Shown here: piece after piece, positions 6,849-49,629 of the stretch
Numbering within the stretch: position 1 is the stretch's first letter
Layout: each line of letters begins with the position of its first letter
Assembly: GCF_002432345.1 (NCBI RefSeq)
Contig: NZ_DJDT01000299.1
Span: forward strand, 2,454-66,453
DNA: 64,000 bases
Direction of reading: 5' to 3'
Origin: Pedobacter sp. UBA5917
Lineage (GTDB): Bacteria; Bacteroidota; Bacteroidia; Sphingobacteriales; Sphingobacteriaceae
Program-made: the position numbers and the translations under genes
Notes under the pieces: model-generated
What the model saw: the letters and a program-made list of their open reading frames with translations, nothing else
Told to the model about the DNA's origin: nothing
Databases searched by the model: none

Positions 6849-8360
6849 CTAATATTTCAATCTATTTTTTCTCCAGTCCGAAGTATTTTTAACCACCTCA
6901 TCACTCATTTTTATATCCTTTTTCTGGAATAATTTAGCGGCAATTACTGCGGCAATAAGTGCTTCTGTTTCATCCTGTGCCTTTAAACTTTCAGGTTTAA
7001 AGTATTTGCCTACAAAGTGGGTATCAAAATTACCACTTTTAAAAGCTTCGTGCTGCATTACAAATTTACCAAAAGCCAGGGTAGTTTCTATCCCCGTAAT
7101 ATCATATTCTTCAATTGCCCTCACCATTCTTTCGATGGCTTCTTCCCTATCTTTACCATAGGTGATCAGTTTGGCAATCATCGGATCGTAATAAATGGGG
7201 ATTTCCATGCCCTGCTCAAAACCATCGTCAACCCTTACACCATTACCTTTTGGGGTATTGTAGGTTTGTAAAGTACCAATATCAGGGAGGAAATTATTGG
7301 CCGGATCTTCTGCATACACCCTTAATTCGATGGCATGTCCGCTTATTTTTAAATCTTCCTGGTTAAAACCTAATTTTTCGCCCGAAGCAATTTTAATCTG
7401 TTCTTTTACCAGGTCGATTCCCGTAATCAGTTCGCTTACCGGATGTTCTACCTGTAAACGGGTATTCATTTCGAGAAAAAAGAAATCCAGGTTTTCATCC
7501 AGGATAAATTCTACGGTACCAGCGCCGGTATAATTTACCGAACGGGCCACGTCTACTGCGCACTTACCCATCTGCTGCCTGATTTCTTCAGTTAAAACCG
7601 ATGAAGGTGCTTCCTCTACCACTTTCTGGTGACGGCGCTGCACAGAGCATTCACGTTCGAAAAGGTGTACAATATTACCGTGGTTATCGCCCAAAACCTG
7701 TATTTCGATGTGCCTAGGCGAAGTAACATAACGTTCGATAAAAACAGCTCCATCGCCAAATGCAGAGGTAGCTTCGCTTACGGCAAGCTGCATCTGCTCT
7801 TCAAAATCATCGGCCTTTTCTACGATGCGCATCCCTTTGCCACCGCCACCTGCTGCCGCTTTAATCAAAATCGGAAAACCAACTTCGATGGCACGTTGTT
7901 TGGCTTCGTTCACATCCTGAATGGCCTCTTCCGTTCCGGGCACCATTGGGATGTTATATTTTAATGCGGCAGCTTTTGCAGATAGTTTATTACCCATAGT
8001 TTCCATTGCCTGCGGCGAAGGACCAACCAAAATCAAACCTGAATCGGCAACCAATTGTGCAAAACCTGCATTCTCGGATAAGAAACCATAACCCGGATGA
8101 ATGGCTTCGGCCCCTGTTAATTTACAGGCATCGATAATTTTTTCTCCTACCAGATAACTTTGGTTAGAAGGTGCCGGACCGATAAAAACAGCTTCATCAG
8201 CATAACGTACATGCAATGCATTACGGTCGGCCTCAGAAAAAACGGCTACTGTTTTGATCCCCATTTCCTTTGCTGAGCGCATAATACGTAAAGCAATTTC
8301 GCCACGGTTGGCAATAAGCAGTTTGGATATTGGGGTTATGGGTTTGGAGTTGTTAGGCAT
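6849..8360 (-). CDS. accC: biotin carboxylase (acetyl/acyl-CoA carboxylase subunit)
   Basis: LIANRGEIALRI N-terminus. ATP-grasp glycine loop AAAGGGGKGMRIV. EMNTRLQVEHPV block. No BCCP or carboxyltransferase gene is adjacent. Confidence 0.85.
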   Translation of the reverse strand: MPNNSKPITPISKLLIANRGEIALRIMRSAKEMGIKTVAVFSEADRNALHVRYADEAVFIGPAPSNQSYLVGEKIIDACKLTGAEAIHPGYGFLSENAGFAQLVADSGLILVGPSPQAMETMGNKLSAKAAALKYNIPMVPGTEEAIQDVNEAKQRAIEVGFPILIKAAAGGGGKGMRIVEKADDFEEQMQLAVSEATSAFGDGAVFIERYVTSPRHIEIQVLGDNHGNIVHLFERECSVQRRHQKVVEEAPSSVLTEEIRQQMGKCAVDVARSVNYTGAGTVEFILDENLDFFFLEMNTRLQVEHPVSELITGIDLVKEQIKIASGEKLGFNQEDLKISGHAIELRVYAEDPANNFLPDIGTLQTYNTPKGNGVRVDDGFEQGMEIPIYYDPMIAKLITYGKDREEAIERMVRAIEEYDITGIETTLAFGKFVMQHEAFKSGNFDTHFVGKYFKPESLKAQDETEALIAAVIAAKLFQKKDIKMSDEVVKNTSDWRKNRLKY

Positions 8361-8370
8361 ATTTTTATAT

Positions 8371-9147
8371 TTATTTCCACCACTTTTCTGATTCTTTTTT
8401 AAAAGCTATCTTAGATTCGGGCGAATTATAGTTATGGGCATAGGCCAACTGATAATTTTCCCAACCATTTTTAAGGTATTTCTCATTTACGCTAAACTCA
8501 CCGGCACCAATATCCAGATCGCCACAACCAGGTATCCTATAATCACCCCAGTTGCATTTTTTGGTGATTTTGCTTTTATAACCTGTCCAGGCCCCTACAA
8601 ATTCATTATTCGAAAAACCATCGGCCATCATATTTATCGTATCATAAAACATATTCCCCTTTGCATCCAGGGCAAAGTGGGTTGTCAGCTTTCCTTTTAT
8701 AGAACCTGCTGAAATACTCTTCTGATCTTCGAAGAATAAAATATCAGCAACAATAAACCCCTGTTTAAATTTAGGTTTGTCGCTTTCTTTATAAAAACCG
8801 GCTTCGGTAATTTTAATTTTTCCCTGGAAGGAGCATATATTATTTTTCACCATGGTTTTTCCATAGGCAAAATACTCATTCGGTTTTTCGATGTCTTTAA
8901 TAACGGAGATCAGGTGGATATAAAACCTTTGATAATTGTCGCCAATAAAACCAATGGCTTCCGCAGCTTTTATCTTTTTATTTTCGATTTCTTCATCCAG
9001 ATCGGCTATACTATCCGAAACCCAGATTTTAGAAAAATCATATTTTGCCGTGCTGGCTACAAAATCTGTATGAGCAACCTGTTGTGCTTTAATCTTAATT
9101 GAACACACCAGCAACAAAAAGAGCGCGGAAAGTTTTATTGCTTTCAT
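8371..9147 (-). CDS. secreted hypothetical protein, paralog of 15701..16483
   Basis: Signal peptide MKAIKLSALFLLLVCSIKIKAQ (start moved to ATG 9147). Shares the C-terminal block KKCNWGDYR(I/V)P...D(L/F)DIGAGEF(S/N)V(N/S)EKY(L/M)KNGW with the other copy. Confidence 0.7.
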   Translation of the reverse strand: MKAIKLSALFLLLVCSIKIKAQQVAHTDFVASTAKYDFSKIWVSDSIADLDEEIENKKIKAAEAIGFIGDNYQRFYIHLISVIKDIEKPNEYFAYGKTMVKNNICSFQGKIKITEAGFYKESDKPKFKQGFIVADILFFEDQKSISAGSIKGKLTTHFALDAKGNMFYDTINMMADGFSNNEFVGAWTGYKSKITKKCNWGDYRIPGCGDLDIGAGEFSVNEKYLKNGWENYQLAYAHNYNSPESKIAFKKESEKWWK

Positions 9148-9192
9148 AGTGATTTTACATTTGGTTATAGCGGGCAAAATATAAGTTTCTGC

Positions 9193-10313: not shown

Positions 10314-10333
10314 TAGTGTATTTTTTACACACT
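10314..10333. promoter_or_regulatory. candidate NrtR-family operator, site 1
   Basis: TAGTGTATTTTTTACACACT in the divergent ltaE / BadF-kinase region. AGTGT and ACACT arms, readable with a 7 nt spacer (one mismatch) or a 9 nt spacer. Confidence 0.5.
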
Positions 10334-10435
10334 TAATTTCCGACAACAACAAATTGTTAAAAAATTATTAAAAAAAAGGATACAAAATATAAGACTTTTT
10401 ATACTTTTATCGTGCTAAAACCAAAAATAAATAAA

Positions 10436-11296
10436 ATGATAGTAATTGCAGACGGCGGATCTACCAAAACAAATTGGTGCTTGATTAACGAGGCCGGCAG
10501 AAAAATTTACTTTAACACCGAAGGTTACAATCCATATTTCTCAAAAGGAGATTACATTGTGAAGTCTTTGAATGAGACTCTTCCAGACCACTTGGAAAGA
10601 GAGAAATTAACAGCGGTTTATTATTACGGTGCCGGCTGTTCTACACCTGCAAATGTTAAGATTGTTGCTGATGCGATGCAATTGATTTTTACCAATGCAA
10701 CCATTTTTGTTGGTCATGATTTACTTGCCTCTTCTAGGGCGCTTCTTGGAAACGAGCCGGGATTTGCTGCTATTTTAGGTACAGGAACCAACTCATGCCT
10801 TTATGATGGATCAGAAATCACCATGAACATCGATTCTTTGGGTTATTTCCTGGGTGATGAAGGTAGCGGTTCGTACATCGGTAAACGTATTTTAAGCGAT
10901 TACATGAAAGGTTATATGCCAAAAGGTTTACGTGAAGCTTTTTACGATAACTACGCTTTAACCAACGAAGATATTTTCGATAACATTTACAACAAGCCAT
11001 TGCCAAACCGTTTCTGCGCAAGCTTTAGTAAATTCTTATACGATTTTAAAGATAGCTACGAGGACTATACTTTTGCAACCATCGATTATGCTTTCACTGC
11101 ATTTTTCGAAGCTTTGGTAATCCACTATCCTAACTATAAAGACCACAAATTGAACTGTGTAGGTTCGGTAGGTTATAGTTTCCGCGATATTTTAAGTATT
11201 GTTGCCGACCGTTACGAAATGGGCGTGGGTAAGATTATCCGCTCACCTATAGATGACCTGGTTCACTATCACTTAGAGTTAGCGCCTAAAGTTTAG
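10436..11296 (+). CDS. BadF/BadG/BcrA/BcrD-type ATPase (N-acetylglucosamine-kinase-like sugar kinase)
   Basis: MIVIADGGSTKTNWCL N-terminal phosphate-1 motif and GTGTNS, DEGSGSYIG motifs. Start moved from the GTG at 10412 to the ATG at 10436. Confidence 0.75.
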   Translation: MIVIADGGSTKTNWCLINEAGRKIYFNTEGYNPYFSKGDYIVKSLNETLPDHLEREKLTAVYYYGAGCSTPANVKIVADAMQLIFTNATIFVGHDLLASSRALLGNEPGFAAILGTGTNSCLYDGSEITMNIDSLGYFLGDEGSGSYIGKRILSDYMKGYMPKGLREAFYDNYALTNEDIFDNIYNKPLPNRFCASFSKFLYDFKDSYEDYTFATIDYAFTAFFEALVIHYPNYKDHKLNCVGSVGYSFRDILSIVADRYEMGVGKIIRSPIDDLVHYHLELAPKV

Positions 11297-11445: not shown

Positions 11446-12135
11446 CTAAAACGAAATCTCCTTACCAAACAACTTCGCGTATTTACGTTTATCAAAACGG
11501 TACAAGGTGGCTGCACGGTACGATACGCCTTTCTGTTTCTCATCAAGTTCTTTTAATACTCCGAAACTAACGATCTTCTTCCTGAAATTCCGTTTATCCA
11601 GTTTTTTACCTAAAACCAGTTCGTACACATGCTGTAATTGCGTTAAGGTAAACTTCTCTGGCAGAAGTTCGAAGGCAATCGGCTGGTGTTTGATACGGCG
11701 TTTTATCTTCTCTAAACCTTTATCGTATATTTTCTGGTGATCGAAAGCCAGTTTGGGCAGATCGGTAATCGGCAACCAGTTGGCACGTTTTGCGTAGGTA
11801 CTTATCGGACGGAGTTCCTTATCACCGCCCAAACGGATCAGGGCATAATAGGCAAGCGTAATTACCCTACCCTGCGGGTGCCTGTTCGGGTCGCCGAAAG
11901 CATAATACTGCTCCATATAAATGCCGCGTAAACCGGTAAGTTCGTAAAGGATCCGCGCAGCGGATTGATCTAAACTCTCATCAGGCCCAACAATATTACC
12001 GGGCAACGCCCACCAATCTTTAAACGGTTCTTCATTCCTTTCGATAAGCAGGATTTTTAGCTCCTTACCATCAAATCCAAACAAAACGCAATCTATCGAG
12101 AATACAGAATCTAAATGAGGTAAAATTTGTTCCAA
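11446..12135 (-). CDS. Nudix-related transcriptional regulator (NrtR family), degenerate Nudix box
   Basis: N-terminal Nudix fold with the box GPDESLDQSAARILYELTGL. The REUxEE glutamates are replaced (R-I-L-Y-E-L). C-terminal winged-helix block FTLTQLQHVYELVLGKKLDKRNFRKKI is typical of NrtR-family proteins. Confidence 0.75.
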   Translation of the reverse strand: MEQILPHLDSVFSIDCVLFGFDGKELKILLIERNEEPFKDWWALPGNIVGPDESLDQSAARILYELTGLRGIYMEQYYAFGDPNRHPQGRVITLAYYALIRLGGDKELRPISTYAKRANWLPITDLPKLAFDHQKIYDKGLEKIKRRIKHQPIAFELLPEKFTLTQLQHVYELVLGKKLDKRNFRKKIVSFGVLKELDEKQKGVSYRAATLYRFDKRKYAKLFGKEISF

Positions 12136-12209
12136 AGTAAAATTTAGTTATTTTAAGCAGATAAAGGTATAACTTTCAATAATAAGTAAAAAAAATAAAA
12201 TAAATTACT

Positions 12210-12230
12210 TAGTGTAAAAAATACACACTA
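12210..12230. promoter_or_regulatory. candidate NrtR-family operator, site 2 (divergent nrtR/pfkA region)
   Basis: TAGTGTAAAAAATACACACTA, 17 nt upstream of the pfkA ATG and 75 nt upstream of the regulator start. Confidence 0.55.
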
Positions 12231-12246
12231 TATTCGTATTATAAAG

Positions 12247-13233
12247 ATGGAGCCAAATATAAAAAATATAGCTGTATTAACTTCTGGAGGCGACGCCCCA
12301 GGAATGAATGCTGCAATTAGAGCTGTTGTTCGTACCGGAATTTATCACGGCATTAATATGTTCGGGGTAATGCAGGGTTACCAGGGTTTAATAACCGACA
12401 ACATAAAACCAATGGACGCCCGTTCGGTAAGTAATATTTTACACTTGGGTGGTACCATATTAAAAACTGCTCGCTGTTTAGAATTTAAAACAGACGAAGG
12501 TCAGCAGATTGCCTATAACAATTTAAAGAAAAACGATATCGACGGACTAGTGGTTATTGGTGGCGATGGAACCTTTACAGGTGCCAAACGCTTTTCTGAA
12601 ACTTTTGGTGTTAAGGTAATCGGTATACCGGGCACAATTGATAACGACTTGGTAGGATCTGATTTTACCCTGGGTTACGATACAGCCATTAATACGGTGA
12701 TCGAAGCGATCGATAAAATCAGGGATACTGCAGATGCGCACGACCGTTTGTTCTTTATTGAAGTAATGGGACGCGATTCGGGCTGTATTGCTTTAAGGAG
12801 TTCGATTGCCAGCGGTGCCGAAGCAGTATTGTTACCCGAAAAAGAAACCAGTGTAAACGAACTGATTGAAAAACTGGCCTTAGGTGCTGCAACCAAAAAA
12901 TCGTCGAGTATTGTAATTGTTGCCGAAGGGCACAAACAGGGCGGTGCTTACGATATTGCAAAAAGGGTAAAGGAAACTTTCGATCATTACGACACCAAAG
13001 TAACCATCCTTGGCCACCTGCAACGTGGCGGTAGCCCGAGCAGTTTCGACAGAATTTTGGGCAGCCGTTTAGGTTTTGCGGCAGTAAATGCGTTAATTGC
13101 AGGCGAAACGGAACAAATGGTCGGTTTAAAAGGAAATGAAATAAAATTAACCAGCATAAGAGAGGCTTTAACGGCTCACTCCTTCAAATTAGAATCTGAT
13201 TTATTGGAAATGACCGAAGTACTTTCGATATAA
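12247..13233 (+). CDS. pfkA: ATP-dependent 6-phosphofructokinase
   Basis: TSGGDAPGMNAAIRAVVR, IGGDGT, PGTIDND, MGRDSG, GHLQRGG motifs. Confidence 0.95.
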   Translation: MEPNIKNIAVLTSGGDAPGMNAAIRAVVRTGIYHGINMFGVMQGYQGLITDNIKPMDARSVSNILHLGGTILKTARCLEFKTDEGQQIAYNNLKKNDIDGLVVIGGDGTFTGAKRFSETFGVKVIGIPGTIDNDLVGSDFTLGYDTAINTVIEAIDKIRDTADAHDRLFFIEVMGRDSGCIALRSSIASGAEAVLLPEKETSVNELIEKLALGAATKKSSSIVIVAEGHKQGGAYDIAKRVKETFDHYDTKVTILGHLQRGGSPSSFDRILGSRLGFAAVNALIAGETEQMVGLKGNEIKLTSIREALTAHSFKLESDLLEMTEVLSI

Positions 13234-13234
13234 T

Positions 13235-15084
<1,850 letters not shown>

Positions 15085-15085
15085 T

Positions 15086-15156
15086 AAAAAAGCGCTTAAA
15101 GCGCTTTTTTAAATGCGATAAAAGGCAACATTATTCAATTAATGTTGCCTTTTTGT
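15086..15156 (+). terminator. two tandem rho-independent terminators after gap
   Basis: AAGCGCT-taa-AGCGCTT plus T-run (15090-15111). GGCAACATTA-ttcaat-TAATGTTGCC plus T-run (15125-15156). Confidence 0.8.
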
Positions 15157-15466
15157 TTTAAACATAATTTTCATCTATAAATTATATTTTATTTTAAGCC
15201 TAAAAAATCATTTTCACACAAACACACACTTAAAAAACATCATAAAAAATAAAAAATAGTAAAAAATCATATAAAAAATTGATAAAAGTCATTTTTAAAT
15301 AGAATTTTGAGACAATTTGACTATACAACATCATAATTTGATAATATTTAACAATTATTTAACATATTTTTGAGCTATATTTGCAATACAGTCGTTTTTA
15401 AAAGCAAAATCCACGAGAAAAAGATTAGTAAATAAAAAATGACAGAAAAAAAACTTAAATTTTTCT

Positions 15467-15485
15467 TAGTGTATTTTTTACACTA
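15467..15485. promoter_or_regulatory. candidate NrtR-family operator, site 3 (perfect palindrome, orphan)
   Basis: TAGTGTATTTTTTACACTA is a perfect 7-5-7 inverted repeat. No annotated CDS lies downstream on either strand. Confidence 0.55.
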
Positions 15486-15498
15486 TCAAATTTTTTCC

Positions 15499-15506
15499 TA
15501 TATTTG
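15499..15506 (+). promoter_or_regulatory. Bacteroidota -7 promoter box TATATTTG
   Basis: Matches the TAnnTTTG consensus and starts 14 nt after site 3. A second TATATTTG box lies at 15376-15383. Confidence 0.35.
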
Positions 15507-15634
15507 TAGAGTAATAAACGGAACGATGTTTATTCACATTAAAAAAGATAAATCATTTTCTTGAAAAACTCCGGTTTAGATAGAAGATTAAAGACAAAGC
15601 CTGGCTCATAACAGGTTTATATTTGGTTAGAAAA

Positions 15635-15672
15635 AAGAGATACGTCTGGATGGAGTATCTCTTTTCTTATTT
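15635..15672. terminator. bidirectional terminator hairpin
   Basis: GAGATAC-N11-GTATCTC flanked by an A-run and a T-run. Serves the minus-strand gene ending at 15701 and could also stop a plus-strand transcript from 15506. Confidence 0.65.
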
Positions 15673-15700
15673 TAGGGGAAACGAAGTATACCGGATATAA

Positions 15701-16483
15701 CTACATCCACCAATCTTTTTTCTTTGCAGCACCTTTAGTTTTAATAATAGCAGGATTAGGAGCCATATTTTTAAGTCTTATATCAACCCAACCATTTTTC
15801 ATATACTTTTCCGAAACATTAAACTCACCAGCACCGATATCGAAATCACAATTAGAATTTGGTACGCGATAATCTCCCCAGTTACATTTTTTCGACAGCC
15901 CGTTATCATAAATTTTCCAGGCACCCACAAACGCATTATTAAAGTACCCGTCAGAATTTATATTGATGTTATCATATTTCAAGCTGTTATTTTTATCCAG
16001 GTACCATTTCGTTTTCAGGATTCCGGAAAAAACGCCAGCATATTTCTGCACTTTATCCTCAAACAATTCGTATTTGGCAATCAGTAAGCCCTGCGTTTTG
16101 GCAATACCTTTAAATTCATCGTCAACTCCAAAGTTTACACGCTTTGATTCCTTGATTTCCTGAATGGTTATCTTTCCTTTAAAACTACAGACATTCCCTT
16201 TTACGCTAGATTTTCCTTTAACCACGTACTGTGCCGGATTAACAGGATCTTTAACAATTTCCAAAAACTTAATCAAGATCCTTTGATGTTCATTCCCAAT
16301 TATCCCATAAATCAAATCATTTTCGGTATGCAACCATAAATCTGAAAAGTTATATTTTACAAACTGCTTAGTTTTATCGACAGGAATTAGCGGTTCTCCA
16401 TTCATAATATCCGTATGGCAGATCGACTGGGCATATAATTGAACAGAGCAGAGAAATAAAATGGCAAATTTTATATATTTCAT
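15701..16483 (-). CDS. secreted hypothetical protein, paralog of 8371..9147
   Basis: Signal peptide MKYIKFAILFLCSVQLYAQ. Shares KKCNWGDYRVPNSNCDFDIGAGEFNVSEKYMKNGW and NVCSFKGKITI blocks with the other copy. Confidence 0.7.
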   Translation of the reverse strand: MKYIKFAILFLCSVQLYAQSICHTDIMNGEPLIPVDKTKQFVKYNFSDLWLHTENDLIYGIIGNEHQRILIKFLEIVKDPVNPAQYVVKGKSSVKGNVCSFKGKITIQEIKESKRVNFGVDDEFKGIAKTQGLLIAKYELFEDKVQKYAGVFSGILKTKWYLDKNNSLKYDNININSDGYFNNAFVGAWKIYDNGLSKKCNWGDYRVPNSNCDFDIGAGEFNVSEKYMKNGWVDIRLKNMAPNPAIIKTKGAAKKKDWWM

Positions 16484-25460: not shown

Positions 25461-26441
25461 TTAAAAGTAACATTTCGGCCGCCTGCTTTTTTTGGTAACC
25501 AGGTAATAACCAACCGAAACCTCATGCGAACCGTAATCATAATTAGCCAGTTTATTTAAACTATAATCATAAGCATAACCGATACGCAGGTTCTGCCGGA
25601 TAAATAATTCGCTGATAAAACCAATGGCTGCACGATCGCGCAGGTTGTTATCCAGGTTTCGCTTTGGATATATTTTAACAGAAGTACGGTAAACAGCTCC
25701 GAGCCAAAAACGTTCCTTTACCAGTAAAAAAGCATTCAGATCCAATGAAGTAGGTCCGTGCAGGTCATCTTTGATCAAAAAAGTTGGCTTAAAAACAAAT
25801 TCATCATTCAATGGCAGCGCAAAACCAGAGGTTAAATAAAAATGTGGCTGCACTTTAACATTAAGCAGGCTATAATCGTTAAAAACCGACAAGGATTTAG
25901 ACAAAAGATTATCGGCAGAAAAACCAATAAAAAATTTCTCATTAGAGTAATGGATGCCGGCCCGGATATCAGGCATCACTTGGCTTACATTCCCTGTTGG
26001 AATACGGCTATCGCCCTGTTCAATCGGGTCGAGCAGGTTGCCATTTAAACTGGTTTGTATTACTCCCACGCCCAGACCAAAGGCGAGGATATTTGTCTCA
26101 GTACGATCTAACTTTATGCGGTAGGCAAAATTCGCTGAGGCATTTAAAGCACTCTGCGCCCCGATTTTATCTTTGGTAATGATGGCGCCTATACCCAAAC
26201 TTTCGTCATTAATGGCTTCATCAGCCGAAATAGACAGGGTTTGCGGTGCACCTTTAACGCCGGTCCATTGTGCCCGTGCGAAGGCCTGCAGATAAAGCTC
26301 CTCTTTGTAGCCGGTATATGCGGGATTGATATACATCCCGTTAAAAACATACTGACCAAACTGCGCATTCTGTTGGGCATGAAGTTTAAAAAACGCCATG
26401 CAGACCATAAAAACAAGAACGACTTTTTTTAAGCTCATCAT
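25461..26441 (-). CDS. T9SS PorP/SprF-family outer-membrane protein (cassette 2)
   Basis: Signal peptide followed by QQNAQFGQYVFNGMYINPAYTGY..., the hallmark PorP/SprF N-terminus. Predicted beta-barrel. Ends SRRPKCYF. Confidence 0.9.
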   Translation of the reverse strand: MMSLKKVVLVFMVCMAFFKLHAQQNAQFGQYVFNGMYINPAYTGYKEELYLQAFARAQWTGVKGAPQTLSISADEAINDESLGIGAIITKDKIGAQSALNASANFAYRIKLDRTETNILAFGLGVGVIQTSLNGNLLDPIEQGDSRIPTGNVSQVMPDIRAGIHYSNEKFFIGFSADNLLSKSLSVFNDYSLLNVKVQPHFYLTSGFALPLNDEFVFKPTFLIKDDLHGPTSLDLNAFLLVKERFWLGAVYRTSVKIYPKRNLDNNLRDRAAIGFISELFIRQNLRIGYAYDYSLNKLANYDYGSHEVSVGYYLVTKKSRRPKCYF

Positions 26442-26457
26442 ATCAGTTTAATTGTAT

Positions 26458-27402
26458 TTACCTAATAATGGTGATATAACCTTTATATTCAAGCCAATCG
26501 GTATTACCATTTTTCACCTTAACCACATAGAAATAAGTCCCATCACTTAATCCAGGCGCGGTCCAGTTATTGAGGTATTTGTTTGATTGATATACCGTAC
26601 TTCCCCACCTATTGATTACCGTTACTTCATTAAACTCAAAAGATTCGAGGTTTTCGAGATAAAATGTATCGTTTTTCCCATCCCCATTGGGTGTAAATAC
26701 ATTTGGTATCCTTAAACCCGAAATCTCTTTCAAATCGGTTGAAGTATTATTTGATAACACGGGATCATTTTCGGTTGCCGTTACAGTTGCGGTATTGCTT
26801 ACCATGCCAGGTTGTTTTGCCCTTACATGCACCACAAGCTCTGCAAATTTTCCATTGCCCAAAAGATCTATCCCCCATTGAATAGTTCTTGTAGCCGGAT
26901 CGTAAATGGCAGTTCCATCTGTTGGCTGGGCCAAACTTTCGAAAATGAGGTTATCTGGTAAAACATCCTTCACTTTTACGAATGTGGCATCATCTGTACC
27001 GTTATTCCGTACATCCAGGTAGTAATCAAACACCTGGTTACTCAGTACATTTTTGGTTTCCGAGCGCTTGGTGATGGCTACATCAGCCACAGGTGTACTG
27101 ATTACCTCTACTTCTATCTCATCAGAAGATTCAGACTCGCAGTCTAAACGGTTTATTGCGGTAACCTTATAAATTCCTGCTGTTGCGGTAACGAGTTCCT
27201 GTTTGGTCTGGCCGGGCACACGCTTCCCATCCTTGTACCAGATGTACGAGGAAGCCCCCACCGAATTTGCGCGCAACGAAACCGCCGATCCTTTTTTGAT
27301 CGTGATTTTCGGCCGCCCATTGGGTACGGTCTGGCTAAATCCTATTATAGATGAAAATAATAGAAAAGCCATAAACAGGAAGGTATAAAACCTAAGCCTC
27401 AT
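26458..27402 (-). CDS. small T9SS cargo: Ig-like domain + DUF11 repeat + type-B C-terminal sorting domain (cassette 2)
   Basis: C-terminus IPNVFTPNGDGKNDTF...INRWGSTVY...DGTYFYVV...KGYITIIR matches the gliding-motility-associated type-B CTD pattern. The middle has a DUF11-like block (VADVAITKR...NNGTDDAT...TATVTA..DP...NNTS). Confidence 0.85.
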   Translation of the reverse strand: MRLRFYTFLFMAFLLFSSIIGFSQTVPNGRPKITIKKGSAVSLRANSVGASSYIWYKDGKRVPGQTKQELVTATAGIYKVTAINRLDCESESSDEIEVEVISTPVADVAITKRSETKNVLSNQVFDYYLDVRNNGTDDATFVKVKDVLPDNLIFESLAQPTDGTAIYDPATRTIQWGIDLLGNGKFAELVVHVRAKQPGMVSNTATVTATENDPVLSNNTSTDLKEISGLRIPNVFTPNGDGKNDTFYLENLESFEFNEVTVINRWGSTVYQSNKYLNNWTAPGLSDGTYFYVVKVKNGNTDWLEYKGYITIIR

Positions 27403-27440
27403 TTACAGATTTACAAACAGGAAAAATGGATTAAACGATA

Positions 27441-28136
27441 TTAAAAAGTAACCGGGGTAGCTTTTCCAGAAATCAACGCAGGTGTAATGGTTGGTTTGGT
27501 TGGTTTAGGCGTTACCGTTACATCATGATCTACCGTTTGTGCACAATATTTATTGCCGTTAATTTCGTAACCTACTTTTAAGCGGTATTTTGTAGTACCC
27601 ACTGTAGGCGAAACCGGTGTATAATCTTTTTGGGTTGCACCGGCAATTGCGGTTTCGGCTGTACCAACAACAGTATACCATTGATAAGCTAAACTGGTAA
27701 TGGTAGGATCTTCGGGATTGGTAATTGTTCCAATCTGGGCAATCGGTGTTTCCACACAAAAATCGGCCGCGGCAAAATTGGGCACCAATGGCTGAAGTAC
27801 ATAAACCGGGATTTCCTGCATGTCTGACTCGCAGGATCCTGCGGCAGTAGCTTTCGAGCTTAAATAATAAAATCCATTTTTTAAAATGGCAGCGGGAATC
27901 TGGTTCCCACCGGTTAAAGTAATTAAGTCTGGTGGTGTTGTGGTTTGTGTAGCACTGTATCTTACAATCCAGTTTTGGCCTGGGGCTGGTGCAGGCAAGG
28001 TAAGATCGGAACCTTTACAGAATAAGTTAACGCCTGTAGTGGTTGGTGTAACGGTAACCTGTGCCGAAACGCGTAAGAAGTTACATATCAGCAATAATGC
28101 GATTACGAATAAGCTCTTTTTAATTGTACTGTTCAT
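27441..28136 (-). CDS. secreted two-Ig-like-domain protein, no CTD (cassette 2)
   Basis: Own signal peptide (LLLICNFLRVSAQ). Ig-like pattern with YQWY and C...C pairs. Ends in a Pro-rich linker plus a short tail (TPKPTKPTITPALISGKATPVTF). Confidence 0.75.
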   Translation of the reverse strand: MNSTIKKSLFVIALLLICNFLRVSAQVTVTPTTTGVNLFCKGSDLTLPAPAPGQNWIVRYSATQTTTPPDLITLTGGNQIPAAILKNGFYYLSSKATAAGSCESDMQEIPVYVLQPLVPNFAAADFCVETPIAQIGTITNPEDPTITSLAYQWYTVVGTAETAIAGATQKDYTPVSPTVGTTKYRLKVGYEINGNKYCAQTVDHDVTVTPKPTKPTITPALISGKATPVTF

Positions 28137-28166
28137 GGGGAATTGTTTTTTAGTTTGTTTAATTTT

Positions 28167-30302
28167 TTAATATTGAGATGTTATGGGCAACAGCACATGT
28201 GGCGCTGCCGGTTTTGGGTTTATTTTAATTGTGAAATTGATCTGGGTACTGCAACCATCGGCATTTTTGATGGTTAGGATACCTGAATGCGTTCCTGTTG
28301 CGGCATCAAAAGGAACCGTAAAAGGTATATTTCCAGGCGGTAAAGCCTGATTATTTATTGCTGTAAATCCGGCAGTGTTCCAACTGATGCTGTAAGTTGT
28401 TGGATTATTTAAAGGATTGTTATAACTTAATGATGAACTGGTAAAACCTGAGCAGATTTCGGGCGCTGCCCCTAATGTTAAACCTGGAGGTGCTGCAACG
28501 GTTAAATTAAAATCGGTAGAATTTGTACAAACAGCTGGTCCATCGGGAATAGTATACCTAATTACTGTTGTTCCGGCAGCAACTCCAGTTACTTCTCCTG
28601 TACCTGCATTTACCATCGCAATAAGCGGATTGGTACTTAACCATGTGCCGCCAGGATTTACATTATTTAAAGTAGTGGAAGAACCAATACAGATTTTATT
28701 GATGCCTGTTGTTGTGCCTACAGTGGCAATCGGCTTTACCTGGATGGCAAGCGCTGCACGGCTGGCACTTACGCAGCCTGTGATTTGGTTTACCGCCTCA
28801 ACATAATAAGTTGTGTTTGCAGTAAGCGCAGGTGTTGTATAAGTGGTACCGGTTTGTTTTAAGTTCCCGCCGGTAACCGCATCGTACCATTTATAAGTGA
28901 TACCCGGAAGTGGATTATCGACCGAAAGATTTACAGCTGAGCCACTGCACGAAATTACATTGGTAACCGAAACAGTTGGCAGAGGATTAACCTTTAACGT
29001 TACTTTTACCCGTTCGGAAATAGAGGAAATACAATTATTACGCCTCGATTCTACATAATAAACGTAATCGCCAACAGGTAATACACCCAAATTATAAGAA
29101 CTGCCGGTAAATAGTGGCGTGGGAGTATTTTTATCAGCGTACCATTTATAGGTAGTACAATCCTGCAGGTTATCAATAGATAGAATAGTGCCCTGGCCCG
29201 AACATACATTACCGGCATAAAGCTGTTGCCCGTTAATCAACGGTATGGGCTTGGGGATTACCTTGGTTACATTATAAATATGGAGTTCGGCACCAATCGC
29301 CAATACACCTCCCCATGATATTTTTACACGGTCGAAAACTGCCGATACCGGAAAAGAAACCTCATACTTAGTGGTACCAGCAATCGGTTTAACCGTTACA
29401 TTACCATTATTAAAAGCGCCACCCGCTGTAGCATTTCCCAGGTAAGGCTGAATGGTGAAACCACTGAACAAGCTTAGGCCTCCGCCACCATCGTAAACAA
29501 TTTTAATAGAGTCGAGCGGTTGACTTTCTTTAGCAAATATTGCTGTTATAAATGCCTCATTGGCAGCCTGAAGCCCGGTGTTAATGGTTGCATAAGTGGC
29601 GTAAGCAGGATCAGCATCTATAGCAGCATACGGATTACTTACCGAAGCTGTAGCATTGAGAATGCCGGCACCGTTTACCCCTGCCAATACATCAATACCT
29701 TTATCACATTCGATATCCAAAGGGTTATCTTCTAAAATATAGGCTCCGTATATCTCTGCCGATACCCCCAGAGAAGCCGCTGCCGTAACCTTAATATAAA
29801 CACCATTATAGGCCTGGGCAGGAGTTAAAAAAAGTTCGATTGCTCTTCCACCGCCCAATACACCTGCTATTGGATTGGAATATAATGCTGTACGCGTAGC
29901 TGCTTTGGTATTCGTATCAAAATTGGTAAAAGTTCCGATTTCGATTGTTCCTGACAGACTTAAAGCAGCTGCAGGACTGGATACTTTTACTATCACAGTT
30001 TTATTTGCAGGAATCAGACGTTTACCCAAATCGGTACCATCTGTACTAAACTCCAGAAACTGTGTAACGGATGATGTACTCAACAAACTATTGATAGAAG
30101 ATGTAGAAGCTGTTGACGGATCTGAATCAGCTGCTTTTGATCCATTGGTTAGGCTGGCAGATGCTCCCAATCCCCGGATAATCTGCGAATCCTGAAAACT
30201 AGCGTATACGCGGCTTTGATTCGTACACAACTGTGCATACAAAGGCCCTGAGAGGACCAAAAACAGTCCCAAGAATAAGAATAGACAAAAAAACCGCTTC
30301 AA
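28167..30302 (-). CDS. large secreted adhesin-like protein: two N-terminal unknown beta modules + Ig-like/BIG2-like repeats, no CTD (cassette 2)
   Basis: TTG start. Signal peptide ...LSGPLYAQ followed by LC. Repeats of C-x-G...Y-K-W-Y...Y-Y-V-E...C. BIG2-like GTWLSTNPLIAMVNAGTGEVTGVAAGT. Confidence 0.8.
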   Translation of the reverse strand: MKRFFCLFLFLGLFLVLSGPLYAQLCTNQSRVYASFQDSQIIRGLGASASLTNGSKAADSDPSTASTSSINSLLSTSSVTQFLEFSTDGTDLGKRLIPANKTVIVKVSSPAAALSLSGTIEIGTFTNFDTNTKAATRTALYSNPIAGVLGGGRAIELFLTPAQAYNGVYIKVTAAASLGVSAEIYGAYILEDNPLDIECDKGIDVLAGVNGAGILNATASVSNPYAAIDADPAYATYATINTGLQAANEAFITAIFAKESQPLDSIKIVYDGGGGLSLFSGFTIQPYLGNATAGGAFNNGNVTVKPIAGTTKYEVSFPVSAVFDRVKISWGGVLAIGAELHIYNVTKVIPKPIPLINGQQLYAGNVCSGQGTILSIDNLQDCTTYKWYADKNTPTPLFTGSSYNLGVLPVGDYVYYVESRRNNCISSISERVKVTLKVNPLPTVSVTNVISCSGSAVNLSVDNPLPGITYKWYDAVTGGNLKQTGTTYTTPALTANTTYYVEAVNQITGCVSASRAALAIQVKPIATVGTTTGINKICIGSSTTLNNVNPGGTWLSTNPLIAMVNAGTGEVTGVAAGTTVIRYTIPDGPAVCTNSTDFNLTVAAPPGLTLGAAPEICSGFTSSSLSYNNPLNNPTTYSISWNTAGFTAINNQALPPGNIPFTVPFDAATGTHSGILTIKNADGCSTQINFTIKINPKPAAPHVLLPITSQY

Positions 30303-30503
30303 TTTGTTTGGGAGAGCAAAAATTCAGGGTTATGTTTGGTTACGTAAAAATGGAACGAACGGTTTTTCGAACATTCATTTTATTCATTTTTCAACCAACA
30401 CAAAACTAATCAACGCTCATGTAATCCATGTTAAGAAAACATGCAACCACAAACAAAAAGCAAACAAATTAGGAATATTTATACGATTTTCAGGAGACTA
30501 CCG

Positions 30504-31475: not shown

Positions 31476-31497
31476 ATCCTCACCTTTTAACTTTCAT

Positions 31498-32436: not shown

Positions 32437-32455
32437 GGCGGTTAAACTTTATAAC

Positions 32456-33184: not shown

Positions 33185-33222
33185 GGCTTTAATTTGTTAG
33201 GGATGAATGATTTATTTCTTTT

Positions 33223-37410: not shown

Positions 37411-39372
37411 TTATTTGCTTTTGAAAATTACCACAGCTAGAGGTGGTAGATCTACGATGATTGAGTATTCCTGACCATTATAACCTTCGAGATTTGGCAC
37501 AATATCGCCACGGTTATTAATACCTCCACCGTAATAAACAATATCGTCGGTATTGAAAATTTCTGTCCACTTGGTTTTAAACGGAACGCCGATTTTATAA
37601 TTCTCGCGTACTACAGGCGTTAGGTTAATGGCAATTACCAAAGTATCTTTTGCCTTTAGTCCTTTACGCATGTAAACAAAAACCGATTCGTTTGCATTAT
37701 CGGCATCAATCCATTGGAAACCTTCGTAACTAAAATTAAAATGATACAATGCAGGCTCTTTGCGATACAGGAAGTTTAAAGCTTTAACCGTTTCCTGCAT
37801 GCCTTTATGCGGCGCGTATTGTAATAAATGCCAATCGAGCGATTGGGTAAAGTTCCATTCGCTGGTTTGGCCAAATTCGTTCCCCATAAACAGCAGTTTT
37901 GCTCCAGGGTGGGTAAACATATAACCATAAAGTGCCCTTAAATTGGCAAATTTCTGCCAATCGTCGCCAGGCATTTTATATAACATAGGCGATTTACCAT
38001 GCACCACTTCATCATGCGAAAAAGGCAGCATAAAGTTTTCGGTAAAGGCATAAGTCATACTAAAGCTTAACTGGTGGTGATGGTGTTTCCGGCCAAGGGT
38101 ATCAACTTTAAAGTACTTCAGCGTATCGTTCATCCAGCCCATCATCCATTTCATGCCAAAACCCAAACCGCCATTATGCACCGGATGGGTTACCCCCGGA
38201 TAAGTGCTGCTTTCTTCGGCAATGGTCTGCACACCTTCAAAATTGCCATAAACCGCTACATTTAAGTCCTGAAGAAACTGGATGGCGCCAATATTTTCGC
38301 TTCCTCCATATTCGTTGGTTGCAGCATCGGCATCTTCCCTTGAGAAATTAAAATATAACATCGAGGCCACGGCATCAACCCTCAAACCATCGGCATGGTA
38401 TTGATCCAGCCAGAATATGGCATTACTGATGAGGAAAGAACGTACCTCATTACGATCGTAGTTAAAGATGTATGATTTCCAATCGGGATGGAAACCTTTA
38501 CGCATATCGGCGTGCTCGTACAGGTGCGTACCATCAAATTCATATAAACCATGCCTATCGCCCGGAAAATGCGAAGGTACCCAATCCAATATTACGGCGA
38601 TATTGGCCTTATGTAATTCATCGATCAGGTACATTAAATCCTGCGGGGAACCATAACGCGAACTTGCCCCAAAATATCCGGTAATCTGGTATCCCCAGCT
38701 CGGGAAAAATGGAAATTCCATTACAGGCATTAGTTCTACGTGCGTAAAACCCATTTCCTTAACATAAGGCACAAGCCTTCCGGCCACTTCCCTACAGTTT
38801 AATACGCGCTCGGGATTATCAGGATCGCGCTCCCACGAACCCAGATGTATCTCGTAAACAGAAATCGGCTGGTCTAAAGCATTTAACTTTGCCCTTTTAT
38901 TAAGCCAGGCTTTATCTTTCCAGGTATAATCGGTATCCCAAACAATACAAGCCGTTTGCGGCGGATGCTCCCATCTGCGCGCATAAGGATCGCCCTTTAA
39001 ATGTTCAGACTCATCAAAACCCTTAACAAAATATTTATATACCTCGCCTTTGGCAATACCCGGTATAAAACCCTCCCAGATACCCGATTTATCCCAGCGT
39101 TTGTACAGCAGATGTGATCCGTTGTTCCAATCGTTAAAATTACCAACCACACTTACCTTAGTGGCGTTTGGTGCCCAAACAGAAAAATAAGTTCCGGTTG
39201 TAGCCTCAACAGTAATTAAATGAGAGCCCATTTTTTCGTACAGCCTAAAATGTTTTCCAACAAGAAAAAGATCAATGTCGTAATCGGTAAATAAACTGTG
39301 TGCCCAAACGGATTTCTTCTTATCGATTTTAGGTAACGCTGCTTTTTTTGCAGGAACTTTTTTTGCTGACAT
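37411..39372 (-). CDS. glgB: 1,4-alpha-glucan branching enzyme (GH13)
   Basis: DWVPSHF, GLRVDAVASMLY, IAEESSTYPG, FSHDEVVHGK blocks. Start moved to MSAKKVPAKK (39372). Confidence 0.9.
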   Translation of the reverse strand: MSAKKVPAKKAALPKIDKKKSVWAHSLFTDYDIDLFLVGKHFRLYEKMGSHLITVEATTGTYFSVWAPNATKVSVVGNFNDWNNGSHLLYKRWDKSGIWEGFIPGIAKGEVYKYFVKGFDESEHLKGDPYARRWEHPPQTACIVWDTDYTWKDKAWLNKRAKLNALDQPISVYEIHLGSWERDPDNPERVLNCREVAGRLVPYVKEMGFTHVELMPVMEFPFFPSWGYQITGYFGASSRYGSPQDLMYLIDELHKANIAVILDWVPSHFPGDRHGLYEFDGTHLYEHADMRKGFHPDWKSYIFNYDRNEVRSFLISNAIFWLDQYHADGLRVDAVASMLYFNFSREDADAATNEYGGSENIGAIQFLQDLNVAVYGNFEGVQTIAEESSTYPGVTHPVHNGGLGFGMKWMMGWMNDTLKYFKVDTLGRKHHHHQLSFSMTYAFTENFMLPFSHDEVVHGKSPMLYKMPGDDWQKFANLRALYGYMFTHPGAKLLFMGNEFGQTSEWNFTQSLDWHLLQYAPHKGMQETVKALNFLYRKEPALYHFNFSYEGFQWIDADNANESVFVYMRKGLKAKDTLVIAINLTPVVRENYKIGVPFKTKWTEIFNTDDIVYYGGGINNRGDIVPNLEGYNGQEYSIIVDLPPLAVVIFKSK

Positions 39373-39430
39373 AGATATTTTGGCTAGATAAATGAAGCCC
39401 CAAACACTAAACAGCATTTGGGGCTAAATG

Positions 39431-41893
39431 TTACAGACTTAAAATCTGAATTTCCAAGAAATTTTTATTGCACTTGAAATGCAGGATATTCTGATCGTCG
39501 GTATAAAAATCTTTCACCTCTTTATTATCGATGATGATCTTTTTAACCTGGAATTTTACGCCGATAATATTGCAAACATAAAACTCATAGTTAGGTGTAT
39601 ATAAACCTTCGCTACGCTGATTAACCTTAATGGTCTGGTTATCGCCTTTAACGGTAAATTTCTTTTCAAGGTAAATATCCTGTTCGTAGGCAAAAGTATC
39701 GCCATGATCTTCGTACATGTACGAATTCACTTCGTAATCGCTGTGGTAGATATTCAGGATTACTTCGGTAATTGATTTTTCATCCACATATTGCATTACC
39801 GGATACTCAGGCAAAACAGAACCTGCACGCACAAACATCGGCATACTGTCTATCTTGGCATCAACGGTATATTCGTTACCGCCATCCAAAATTTCGTTGG
39901 TCCAGAAATTGTACCAGGTACCTTTTGGCAGGTAAACCCTTCTTGATATGGCGCCCTGTTCTAAAACCGGACAGATCAGCAATTTATCGCCATAGCAAAA
40001 TTCATCCTGGCGGAAACTGTTGCTGATATTTTCCTGCTCGAGCATTACCAATGGCCTTAAAATTGGAAAGCCATAACGGTGGTGTTCCCAGAAAACAGAA
40101 TACAGGTAAGGCATTAAACGGTACCTTAATTCGATAAACTTACGGTTAATATCTTCGAAAAACTGACCAAAGCTCCAGGGTTCGCGTTCGGCTGTATCGC
40201 CGGCAGAGTGTGCACGCATAAACGGAGAAAATGTACCCAACTGGATCCAGCGGGTAAATAATTCGCCATCCGGCTCGCCGCTAAATCCGCCGATATCAGT
40301 TCCACAGAAAGGAACACCCGAAACAGATAAACGCTGGCATTGGATATTGCCGATCTTTAAATGCTCCCAGGTAGCAATGTTATCACCTGTCCATACACTG
40401 GCATAACGCTGCATACCCGAATAACCAGCCCTTGTAATGGTAAACGGGCGTTTATTGCGCATCAGTTTTTTAAGCCCTTCGTAAGTAGAACGCACCATCT
40501 GCATACCGTAAACATTGTGTGCTTTACGGTGCGAACCGCGGTAACCATCGTAATTATGGCGTACATCGTTAGGGAAAGTACCCGAACCGAATACAGCAGG
40601 CTCGTTCATATCATTCCAGAAACCTGCAACGCCCATATCTACCAGTTCCTTGTACAGGTTGCCCCACCAGGCACGTACTTTAGGGTTGGTGAAATCCGGA
40701 AACTGGCAACGGCCCGGCCAAACGTGCCCTTCCATATAATAATCGTCGCTGCGGCGACAGAAAAATCTTTTCTCTTTACCTTCCTTAAAAACCCAGTAAT
40801 CGTCATCTACCTTAATTCCCGGATCGATCATCACCACGGTTTTAAAACCATCATCAGAAAGTTCTTTGATCATCCTCCTCGGATCAGGAAAGTATTTTTT
40901 GTTCCAGGTAAAACAGCGGTAGCCATCCATATAATCGATATCCAGATAAATGGCATCGCATGGGATTTTACGCTCCCTGAACTGTTTGGCTATTTCTTTA
41001 ACTTTTGTTTCAGGATAATAACTCCAACGGCACTGCTGGTACCCCAAAGTCCATTTTGGAGGCATCGGGTGCGTTCCGGTTAGGGTTGCATACCGTTTTA
41101 CCACGTCCATAATGTGCGGTCCGTGGATATAATAGTACTGCAGTTCGCCCCCATCGGCCCAGAAACTGGTTTTGTTTACATCCTCGCCCCCGAAATCGAA
41201 ATACGATTTAAAAGTATTATCGAAAAATATACCATAAGCGGCCTGGTTATGCAAACCGATGTAAAAAGGTATGGTACGGTATAAAGGATCCTGGTTCCAG
41301 CCGAAAGAGTAGGCATCGGTATTCCAGTTTTCGAAACGGCGGCCTCGCAGGTTAAAATTGCCCGATTTATCGCCTAAACCAAAGAAATTTTCTTCGGGAT
41401 GGCATTTTTTTGTGGCATAAATATAATAACCGCCAAAATCTACATTCTCTTCCCAGTGCATGGAATTGGCTTCATCAACCATCATTACATTGGTAATATT
41501 ATCGTGGAAAGAGATGTGGAAATTTGCTTTTTCTATTTTACAGGTTACGGCGTGCGTAGAAATAGTATAGTGATCTTCCTGTTCCTGCATCTTAAAAACA
41601 GAAACTTTCTGGTCTACTTCCGGTACGGCATAAGAGAAATCATCCAGAAAAACACCGTGTGGTGCCAGGCGTACCCTGATGATATCATCGCTTACCACCC
41701 TTACTTCTACCCTGGCATCGCCATCAGAAAAATAAAAGCGGTTGCCTTCTTTTTTTACTTTTTTAACTGCCCCAAGGTACTGTTTAACAATTGGTTTTAC
41801 CGATATATCAACCGGATTGTTTAAATGCTGTATTTCCTGTTCTTTCTCGATCAGTTCTCCGGCATCATTCGGTTTGTCGTTTTGCGCTTCCAT
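39431..41893 (-). CDS. GH31 alpha-glucosidase
   Basis: GFWNDMNEPA nucleophile region and WTGDN block. Start taken at the ATG at 41893 rather than the TTG at 41905. Confidence 0.85.
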   Translation of the reverse strand: MEAQNDKPNDAGELIEKEQEIQHLNNPVDISVKPIVKQYLGAVKKVKKEGNRFYFSDGDARVEVRVVSDDIIRVRLAPHGVFLDDFSYAVPEVDQKVSVFKMQEQEDHYTISTHAVTCKIEKANFHISFHDNITNVMMVDEANSMHWEENVDFGGYYIYATKKCHPEENFFGLGDKSGNFNLRGRRFENWNTDAYSFGWNQDPLYRTIPFYIGLHNQAAYGIFFDNTFKSYFDFGGEDVNKTSFWADGGELQYYYIHGPHIMDVVKRYATLTGTHPMPPKWTLGYQQCRWSYYPETKVKEIAKQFRERKIPCDAIYLDIDYMDGYRCFTWNKKYFPDPRRMIKELSDDGFKTVVMIDPGIKVDDDYWVFKEGKEKRFFCRRSDDYYMEGHVWPGRCQFPDFTNPKVRAWWGNLYKELVDMGVAGFWNDMNEPAVFGSGTFPNDVRHNYDGYRGSHRKAHNVYGMQMVRSTYEGLKKLMRNKRPFTITRAGYSGMQRYASVWTGDNIATWEHLKIGNIQCQRLSVSGVPFCGTDIGGFSGEPDGELFTRWIQLGTFSPFMRAHSAGDTAEREPWSFGQFFEDINRKFIELRYRLMPYLYSVFWEHHRYGFPILRPLVMLEQENISNSFRQDEFCYGDKLLICPVLEQGAISRRVYLPKGTWYNFWTNEILDGGNEYTVDAKIDSMPMFVRAGSVLPEYPVMQYVDEKSITEVILNIYHSDYEVNSYMYEDHGDTFAYEQDIYLEKKFTVKGDNQTIKVNQRSEGLYTPNYEFYVCNIIGVKFQVKKIIIDNKEVKDFYTDDQNILHFKCNKNFLEIQILSL

Positions 41894-42007
41894 CCTTATA
41901 TTCAAATTTTAAATTCATACCTCTTAAACTGGGATGTGCTTAAGAAAGTACTATAATACAAATATTTTATAAAAGGGATGTAGCTTTTTTATAAAAGATA
42001 AATTTAG

Positions 42008-42026
42008 TAGTGTAAAATTAACACTA
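42008..42026. promoter_or_regulatory. candidate NrtR-family operator, site 4
   Basis: TAGTGTAAAATTAACACTA, 19 bp with TAGTGT/ACACTA arms, 115 nt upstream of the GH31 start. Confidence 0.5.
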
Positions 42027-49609: not shown

Positions 49610-49629
49610 AGCAATACAAAAATAAGCAA

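Follow-up and report, generated by a model that had tools for sequence, protein, structure and literature searches.

A predicted NrtR-family regulator with a degenerate Nudix box and its candidate operators at glycolytic genes of Pedobacter and related Sphingobacteriaceae

The regulator and a recurrent palindrome

We analysed a stretch of 64,000 nucleotides (nt) from Pedobacter sp. UBA5917 (contig NZ_DJDT01000299.1, positions 2,454 to 66,453; hereafter the window), in which the gene of a predicted NrtR-family transcription factor adjoins an operon of pfkA, a sugar kinase gene and gap, and in which a 19-bp palindrome, the candidate operator of this regulator, recurs at four places (Table 1). 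The analysis was computational throughout and started from an original prediction made from the letters of the sequence, whose regulator feature, ending at position 12246, comprised the regulator open reading frame (ORF) and the 111-bp spacer reaching the pfkA start codon. The identities of pfkA and gap were confirmed with Pfam and NCBIfam (PFKA_ATP, GAPDH-I), those of the GH31 alpha-glucosidase and glgB genes with Pfam GH31 domains and the NCBIfam GlgB model (898 bits). The kinase encoded in the pfkA operon matches PDB entries 8OQW, 8OW9 and 1ZXO. The second kinase, encoded on the other side of the regulator gene, matches 1ZBS (2e-64), 1ZXO and the N-acetylglucosamine (GlcNAc) kinase 8OQK (2e-57) in alignments starting at its residue 9, and weakly Pfam BcrAD_BadFG. 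Both had been called BadF-type kinases; the PDB matches correct the label to MurK/K1058-type sugar kinases. Relatives of this type act on N-acetylmuramic acid (MurNAc) as well as on GlcNAc, the natural substrates of the subgroup being unsettled (PMC10465942), and 1ZBS and 1ZXO are uncharacterised homologues of both window kinases. A terminator was found downstream of gap at 15120-15153; this and a -35-like hexamer described below are the only results taken from a sigma-70 promoter scan, which is ill-suited to Bacteroidetes promoters.

The regulator is 97-99% identical to proteins from many Pedobacter species and has the proposed NrtR-type architecture of a Nudix fold followed by a C-terminal winged helix, since the Pfam profiles NUDIX (PF00293; residues 13-138, 4.4e-13, 49.8 bits against a cutoff of 21.1), NrtR_WHD (PF21906; residues 154-214, 9e-29, full profile length) and AraR_C (PF19368; 8e-16) all matched. 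The peptide quoted in the original prediction (LTQLQHVYELVLGKKLDKRNFRKKI) was found in the ORF. The nearest solved structure is BtAraR (5BS6; E 4e-54), aligned over residues 12-221 and thus over both domains. The Nudix box reads G46-x6-E53-x7-R61-I62-L63-Y64-E65-L66-x-G68-L69. As had been noticed, two of the three REUxEE glutamates are substituted (E to I62 and E to L66), and this degenerate form is kept across 239 orthologues, with I62 in 231 and L66 in 215 of them. Judged by these matches, the protein is an NrtR-family member with a Nudix box of the non-catalytic type. With the equivalog model for NrtR regulators of nicotinamide adenine dinucleotide (NAD) metabolism, NF050029, it scored 151.5 bits against a cutoff of 400. 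Among the window proteins searched with Pfam and NCBIfam, no NAD genes were found near the regulator or at the operator sites, and no ara genes were found within the window or the related loci. By sequence, the regulator is a member of the Bacteroidetes AraR/XylR-like branch of the family; it is not an NAD-type NrtR, nor is it an AraR orthologue, because both its pocket and its targets differ. In a family survey with 50%-identity representatives none carried the E35/Q88 pocket signature described below and the nearest clusters were at most 52% identical; therefore the orthogroup appears to be confined to Sphingobacteriaceae.

The window holds exactly four strong copies of the palindrome, all intergenic, in the common register TAGTGTA-N5-TACACTA with GTGT half-sites 7 bp apart. 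The copy at 15467-15485 is a perfect 19-mer, the one at 42008-42026 has one mismatch, and those at 12210-12228 and 10314-10332 have two mismatches each, both within the outermost two bases. Each of these places had been named in the original prediction, and the palindrome between the regulator gene and pfkA was borne out. Its reading of the 12210 site as a 21-bp element with an ACACTA right arm, however, was 2 nt out of register (the true one being TAGTGTA-N5-TACAC+AC), and the description of four near-identical 19-bp sites holds for their length but not for the outer bases, which are degenerate in two. The claim that all sites lie in promoter-type regions stood as well, except that the 15467 site precedes no ORF but the gene of a small RNA (sRNA) that had been missed. 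In a plain pattern count over the window, the 19-mer with at most one mismatch was observed twice against 0.09 expected, and the 15-bp core with at most one mismatch four times against 1.1 expected, a count reached by 3 of 100 shuffles. Using a symmetrised position weight matrix (PWM) built from 29 distinct sites of related genomes, we obtained 21.5-26.3 bits for the four sites and 8.7 bits for the fifth-best position in the 64 kb, and no match reached 18 bits in 30 block shuffles of the window. Because the PWM was partly trained on the window's own sites, the plain pattern count is the cleaner statistic. Both agree with the earlier judgement that a chance origin is very unlikely.

The palindrome is of the type known from this protein family, as had been proposed. 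Most NrtR motifs are palindromes of about 21 bp with the core GT-N7-AC (Rodionov et al., PMC2330246), and the operator in the BtAraR-DNA crystal, GCAAAAGTGTTACTTTTACACCCATGC, has the geometry GTGT-N7-ACAC (PMC4666351). The window motif combines this core with the BtAraR spacing and stands as TAGTGT-N7-ACACTA at four promoters, near co-localised targets. In BtAraR the base contacts are made by four residues of helix alpha-6 (K179, R180, N181, K184) and two of the wing (K204, R205) (PMC4666351). The recognition helix of the regulator, D180-K186 (DKRNFRK), is identical to that of BtAraR and invariant in the 239 orthologues; K181, R182, N183, K186 and R207 are identical to K179, R180, N181, K184 and R205, and the wing R207 is likewise invariant. 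Hence the AraR DNA contacts and the GTGT half-sites are all present save K204, which is replaced by Y206 (Y/F in the regulator group).

Table 1. Features of the regulator locus and the predicted regulon. Positions refer to the window unless a locus is named.
Feature	Position	Strand	Remarks
Operator O-pfkA, TAGTGTAAAAAATACACAC	12210..12228		Directly adjoins the -7 box
Predicted -7 box of the pfkA operon, TATATTCG	12229..12236	+	Read from sequence; 11 nt ahead of the pfkA start codon
Operon of pfkA (12247-13233), MurK/K1058-type sugar kinase (13235-14077) and gap (14086-15084)	12247..15084	+	Gene gaps 1 and 8 nt
NrtR-family (AraR-like branch) transcription factor	11446..12135	-	229 aa, TTG start, degenerate Nudix box
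Kinase-2 operator, TAGTGTATTTTTTACACAC	10314..10332		Upstream of the second sugar kinase, divergent from ltaE
Second MurK/K1058-type sugar kinase	10436..11296	+	Probable start MIVIADGG at 10436; listed ORF begins at 10412
GH31-glgB operator, TAGTGTAAAATTAACACTA	42008..42026		The operon's -7 box (minus strand, 41959-41966) lies 41 nt downstream
Operon of GH31 alpha-glucosidase (39431-41905) and glgB branching enzyme (37411-39417)	37411..41905	-	Gene gap 13 nt
sRNA operator, perfect, TAGTGTATTTTTTACACTA	15467..15485		Overlaps the -33/-35 region of the sRNA promoter
Predicted -7 box of the sRNA promoter, TATATTTG	15499..15506	+	Read from sequence; 13 nt past the operator
Structured sRNA, about 165 nt	15507..15673	+	Two 5' hairpins, core, intrinsic terminator 15631-15673
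Extra operator by the regulator gene	L069:4747; L071, L072, L076:9874; L073:9873		PWM matches in other Pedobacter loci

Conservation of the operator sites

We retrieved 80 Pedobacter genome loci carrying the regulator (1.56 Mb) and screened them with the PWM at a threshold of at least 14 bits. The order ltaE, kinase 2, regulator, pfkA-kinase-gap is kept in all 80. In every locus covering the region the operator adjoins the -7 box of pfkA, TATATTCG, which we take to be a Bacteroidetes-type -7 element with the consensus TAnnTTTG. O-pfkA occupies the gap between the predicted -33 and -7 promoter elements, with a conserved AAATTACT block just ahead of it, and among 36 distinct Pedobacter upstream sequences the half-sites (AAATTACTTAGTGTA-N5-TACACnnTATATTCG) and the -7 box are invariant and the N5 variable. 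The screen yielded 215 matches, of which 79 lie at pfkA, 66 at kinase 2, 65 at the sRNA and 5 upstream of the regulator gene, and none elsewhere in the 1.56 Mb. The palindrome is thus not the generic repeat that had been considered at the outset, 210 of the 215 matches being found at three syntenic promoter positions. Where the spacer between the regulator gene and pfkA is enlarged, to 300-800 bp in some genomes, the operator remains at pfkA, and five genomes with an expanded spacer carry a second operator, TACTGTG-N5-TACACTA, about 127 nt upstream of the regulator gene. An operator in this place suggests autoregulation in those lineages; it is not evident in the window genome.

The cluster and the operator right upstream of the -7 box are also kept with orthologues of 55-75% identity from Mucilaginibacter gracilis, Arcticibacter, Hufsiella ginkgonis and two uncultured lineages. 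One of these lineages has no pfkA and bears the operator in front of kinase-gap, and in Mucilaginibacter and Hufsiella GH31-glgB adjoins the cluster. Regulator gene and operator are adjacent in all genomes examined, across genera, and the comparison of upstream regions of orthologous regulators, which had been suggested as a check, showed the site kept at pfkA promoters in four genera. A unit of about 45 nt (…GAATTTTAGAATTAACAGAATA…) is repeated several times, in direct and inverted orientation, within the GH31-glgB spacer of M. gracilis (L163, 304-696). An unrelated metagenome contig (JACCDR011037433.1) has a palindrome with a perfect core, AAGTGTATTTTGTACACTT, at L127:478-496. On one side of it is a divergent Nudix/NrtR-like gene, truncated where the contig ends, and on the other the gene of a secreted GH31 protein, as though a further sugar-linked member of the family used the same type of operator.

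The kinase-2 operator stands at the same position in 66 of the 80 Pedobacter loci; some lineages of the genus have a degenerate copy or none. The copies of Mucilaginibacter and Hufsiella adjoin the kinase promoter. The divergent ltaE gene was considered as a target of this site and rejected: in one locus (L064) an insertion parts ltaE from the operator, which remains with the kinase, and ltaE is therefore placed outside the predicted regulon. At GH31-glgB the palindrome named in the original prediction exists, but it is conserved in only part of the genus. It is kept at a fixed promoter distance in five of seven close metagenomic relatives (L083-86, L088), whose upstream flanks are mutually unrelated. 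Since the site is kept only in part among close relatives and is absent farther out, GH31-glgB is a putative lineage-specific member of the regulon, in some Pedobacter including the window genome.

A small RNA next to the perfect palindrome

The perfect palindrome lies between two convergent genes and is for this reason upstream of no ORF. It is followed by a predicted promoter, whose -7 box is invariant in the Pedobacter alignment, and the sigma-70 scan, which is not designed for Bacteroidetes, placed a TTTACA -35-like hexamer inside the right arm of the operator. In an alignment of 64 distinct sequences the sRNA downstream of this promoter has an invariant core of 35 nt (15596-15630, AAAGCCUGGCUCAUAACAGGUUUAUAUUUGGUUAG) that includes a short hairpin. 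Both the second hairpin and the terminator show compensatory changes, RNAalifold predicting 27 pairs of which 13 are supported by such changes, and the sequence past the terminator is unrelated between genomes. Scanning the whole window against Rfam at gathering thresholds gave no match, and E-value scans around the sRNA gave none that was significant. The best hit was GibS (RF04182), with 17 bits against a gathering threshold of 115 and an E-value of 3-5, and membership of the sRNA in this family was rejected on these values. The sRNA is thus a new, previously undescribed RNA family without an Rfam match. A 12-codon ORF inside it (MFIHIKKDKSFS) was rejected as well, because it falls in the variable stretch and lacks conservation. 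A crude RNAduplex comparison of the core with 55 translation-initiation regions from the window produced no clear outlier, and the top rank did not go to a regulon gene.

An independent search that started from the core found the sRNA in 65 Pedobacter loci, 64 of them with the operator upstream. Only P. yulinensis departs from this: in its locus (L070, minus strand, about 6921-7040) core and terminator start 8 nt past the gap stop codon, so that both form the 3' untranslated region (3'UTR) of gap and have no separate promoter or operator. Because the core lies in the gap 3'UTR there, the sRNA would be controlled by one and the same regulator in the stand-alone as in the 3'UTR arrangement. This arrangement also suggests, as the simplest history, that the sRNA began as an element of the gap 3'UTR and was only afterwards set apart as a gene with a promoter and operator to itself. 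Two further elements were observed upstream of the sRNA operator: a block AAAAAATGACAnAAAAAATAC at 15428-15450, about 20 nt ahead of it and nearly invariant across Pedobacter, which may be an UP-like element or the site of a second factor, and a second -7-like box (TATATTTG) at about 15377-15384.

Proposed regulation, alternatives and related systems

Arabinose is bound in BtAraR by R34, R86 and H131 together with F36, G47, G48, F49, V92 and F129 (PMC4666351). The three residues that bind sugar hydroxyls are kept in the regulator as R33, R85 and H133. Those that pack on C4 and C5 of arabinose are changed, F36 to E35 (210 of 239 orthologues) and F49 to L or I; further changes are G48 to N or Y and G89 to Q88 (201 of 239). 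BtAraR G89 takes the position of Arg98 in SoNrtR, the NrtR of Shewanella oneidensis, whose ADP-ribose phosphate binders N43, K76 and R98 are replaced by E35, L66 and Q88. The substitutions therefore argue against both ADP-ribose and arabinose as ligand, the latter being unlikely because the C4/C5 residues differ. A larger neutral sugar, for instance a hexose, would be compatible with such a pocket, and the content of the predicted regulon (alpha-glucosidase, sugar kinases, phosphofructokinase and GAPDH) fits glucose. From pocket and gene content we would guess that the effector is glucose or another hexose, or else some kindred sugar.

Taken together, we think it probable that the regulator is a dimeric, sugar-released repressor of central glycolysis genes that acts through the 19-bp palindrome in Sphingobacteriaceae. 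In such a scheme the winged helices of the dimer would read TAGTGTA-N5-TACACTA, and the protein bound at O-pfkA would block RNA polymerase because the operator fills the space from -33 to -7. The dead Nudix domain would serve as ligand pocket, and on binding a sugar-type effector the protein would turn its DNA-binding domains and let go of the operator, as in BtAraR. We infer repression by occlusion from the position of the best-conserved operator at -33/-7 and from the fact that all characterised members of the family are ligand-released repressors. The regulon would comprise pfkA-sugar kinase-gap as a core, family-wide in Sphingobacteriaceae, and the second sugar kinase, joined in most Pedobacter by the stand-alone sRNA derived from the gap 3'UTR and in some Pedobacter by GH31-glgB.

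A number of observations weigh against this reading. Simple occlusion gives no account of the Pedobacter kinase-2 site, about 70 nt upstream of the presumed -7 box, or of the GH31 site, about 41 nt upstream of its own. Moreover, the GH31 operator is absent from two relatives of 91-93% identity (L087, L089), from L044 and L077 and from all more distant GH31 loci. The promoter elements and transcription starts were assigned from the consensus. Since the two sugar kinases have MurNAc/GlcNAc kinases among their relatives, the effector may also be an amino sugar, and the pathway amino-sugar in place of glucose catabolism. Finally, the DKRNFRK helix is common to most of the wider family, and because it is so widespread its match to BtAraR backs the type of motif and not the pairing with this regulator in particular, for which the genome context argues.

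Given this helix, paralogues could read similar sites, and the palindrome might belong as operator to some other transcription factor with an unlinked gene, with the NrtR-like protein controlling, for example, NAD metabolism through other sites. This appears very improbable to us: regulator gene and operator are neighbours in every genome examined, an extra site precedes the regulator gene where the spacer is expanded, and the motif matches both the family core and the BtAraR operator. A role in NAD metabolism is further opposed by the score far under the NAD-NrtR cutoff, by the loss of the ADP-ribose contacts and by the absence of NAD genes nearby. It has also been considered that the palindromes play no regulatory part and are AT-rich inverted repeats arisen by chance, terminators or copies of a dispersed repeat. 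The modest enrichment of the core, equalled in a few of the shuffles, could be cited for this, but the bimodal gap in PWM scores, the strictly promoter-side position over four genera with fixed arms and a variable spacer, and the lack of copies elsewhere in the Pedobacter loci essentially refute it; as terminators the palindromes have arms too short and loops too rich in AT.

Another explanation keeps the pairing of protein and site and changes the sign or the signal. The regulator could be an activator or a dual regulator, as the Pedobacter kinase-2 and the GH31 sites lie upstream of the core promoter in a typical activator position, or it could sense a nucleotide or redox metabolite such as NAD(H) or ADP-ribose and tie gap activity to transcription, given that gap is NAD-dependent and that members of the family respond to ADP-ribose or NAD. 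We regard this as unlikely, since the best-conserved site overlaps the core promoter from -33 to -7, which is a repressor position, the characterised family members are all repressors, and the phosphate-binding residues expected for ADP-ribose are replaced, one of them by glutamate.

BtAraR (BT0354; PDB 5BS6/5DDG/5DEQ; PMC4666351), the L-arabinose-responsive NrtR-family repressor of Bacteroides thetaiotaomicron, is the closest known system. It shares with the Pedobacter regulator the two-domain architecture, about 44-47% full-length identity, the degenerate Nudix box, the DNA-reading helix, the operator geometry and the Arg/Arg/His trio. It differs in the pocket and wing residues given above, in its occurrence in Bacteroides and Prevotella as opposed to Sphingobacteriaceae, and in its targets, which are ara genes and arabinan polysaccharide utilisation loci, whereas those predicted here are pfkA, gap, sugar kinases, GH31-glgB and the sRNA. 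Canonical NrtR proteins (S. oneidensis, Synechocystis; PMC2330246) are ADP-ribose-responsive repressors of NAD synthesis and salvage; fold, palindromic GT-N7-AC operator and a repressor gene beside its targets are shared with them, whereas NF050029 score, ADP-ribose phosphate contacts and regulon content are not. BtXylR (BT0791) and the pentose-linked NrtR-like regulators of Flavobacteria (PMC2330246, PMC4666351) are likewise sugar-catabolic, Bacteroidetes-specific and local to their operon, but serve xylose and arabinose use and not central glycolysis, BtXylR being likened by description only. The literature searched on NrtR/Nudix regulators reports regulons of NAD, phosphoribosyl pyrophosphate, arabinose and xylose as well as indirect effects on virulence, and no glycolytic regulon. 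Thus, as far as this literature goes, the predicted glycolytic and alpha-glucan target set is new for the family, as had been supposed: the family is known, the regulon is new and the effector is probably new.

Elsewhere the master switch of glycolysis is CggR, Cra or HexR. CggR of Bacillus subtilis, a SorC-family repressor of central glycolytic genes encoded beside gap, senses fructose-1,6-bisphosphate; with the Pedobacter regulator it would share the role of a metabolite-released repressor of glycolytic genes encoded next to gap, a functional analogy only, as protein family and operator are unrelated. The enterobacterial CpxQ and SdhX are sRNAs derived from 3'UTRs. The Pedobacter sRNA resembles them, and the sugar-induced GibS of Bacteroides, in that one species has its core as the gap 3'UTR and in being apparently co-regulated with a carbohydrate regulon; unlike them it has its own promoter and operator in most Pedobacter, and it shows no significant similarity to GibS. 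A bolder view, which we offer tentatively and hold to be rather doubtful as a whole, is that of a hexose-sensing NrtR-family master switch of central glycolysis across Sphingobacteriaceae, whose reach is extended at the post-transcriptional level by a trans-acting sRNA. This sRNA would have arisen in the gap 3'UTR and only afterwards gained a promoter to itself with a copy of the operator. If true, the emancipation of an sRNA gene from an mRNA could be traced inside one regulon.

To our knowledge, transcriptional control of central carbon metabolism is poorly mapped in Bacteroidota outside gut Bacteroides, and the locus offers, for a large family of soil bacteria, a testable triplet of glycolytic regulator, operator and regulon. 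It would extend the plasticity of the NrtR family from NAD and pentoses to hexose and central glycolysis. Furthermore, the natural pocket substitutions, set against the solved AraR-arabinose structure, provide material for the evolution of effector specificity, and the sRNA, whose 3'UTR ancestry is visible in one species, might serve as a model of sRNA gene birth. If experiments do not bear the predictions out, all that is left is a conserved promoter element of an ordinary kind.

Several other features of the window were observed. On each side of the cluster a protein of 260-268 aa with a signal-peptide-like N-terminus is encoded on the minus strand (8371-9177 and 15701-16483). The two are paralogous, with about 36% identity by tblastn, and a Pfam scan of the 15701-16483 protein gave no match. 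Moreover, two consecutive four-gene modules with matching ORF sizes (711/231/314/326 aa and 735/242/312/323 aa) lie on the minus strand at 25461-35430, and a run of four ORFs of 145-149 aa each at 49172-50947 on the same strand; both look like tandem duplications.

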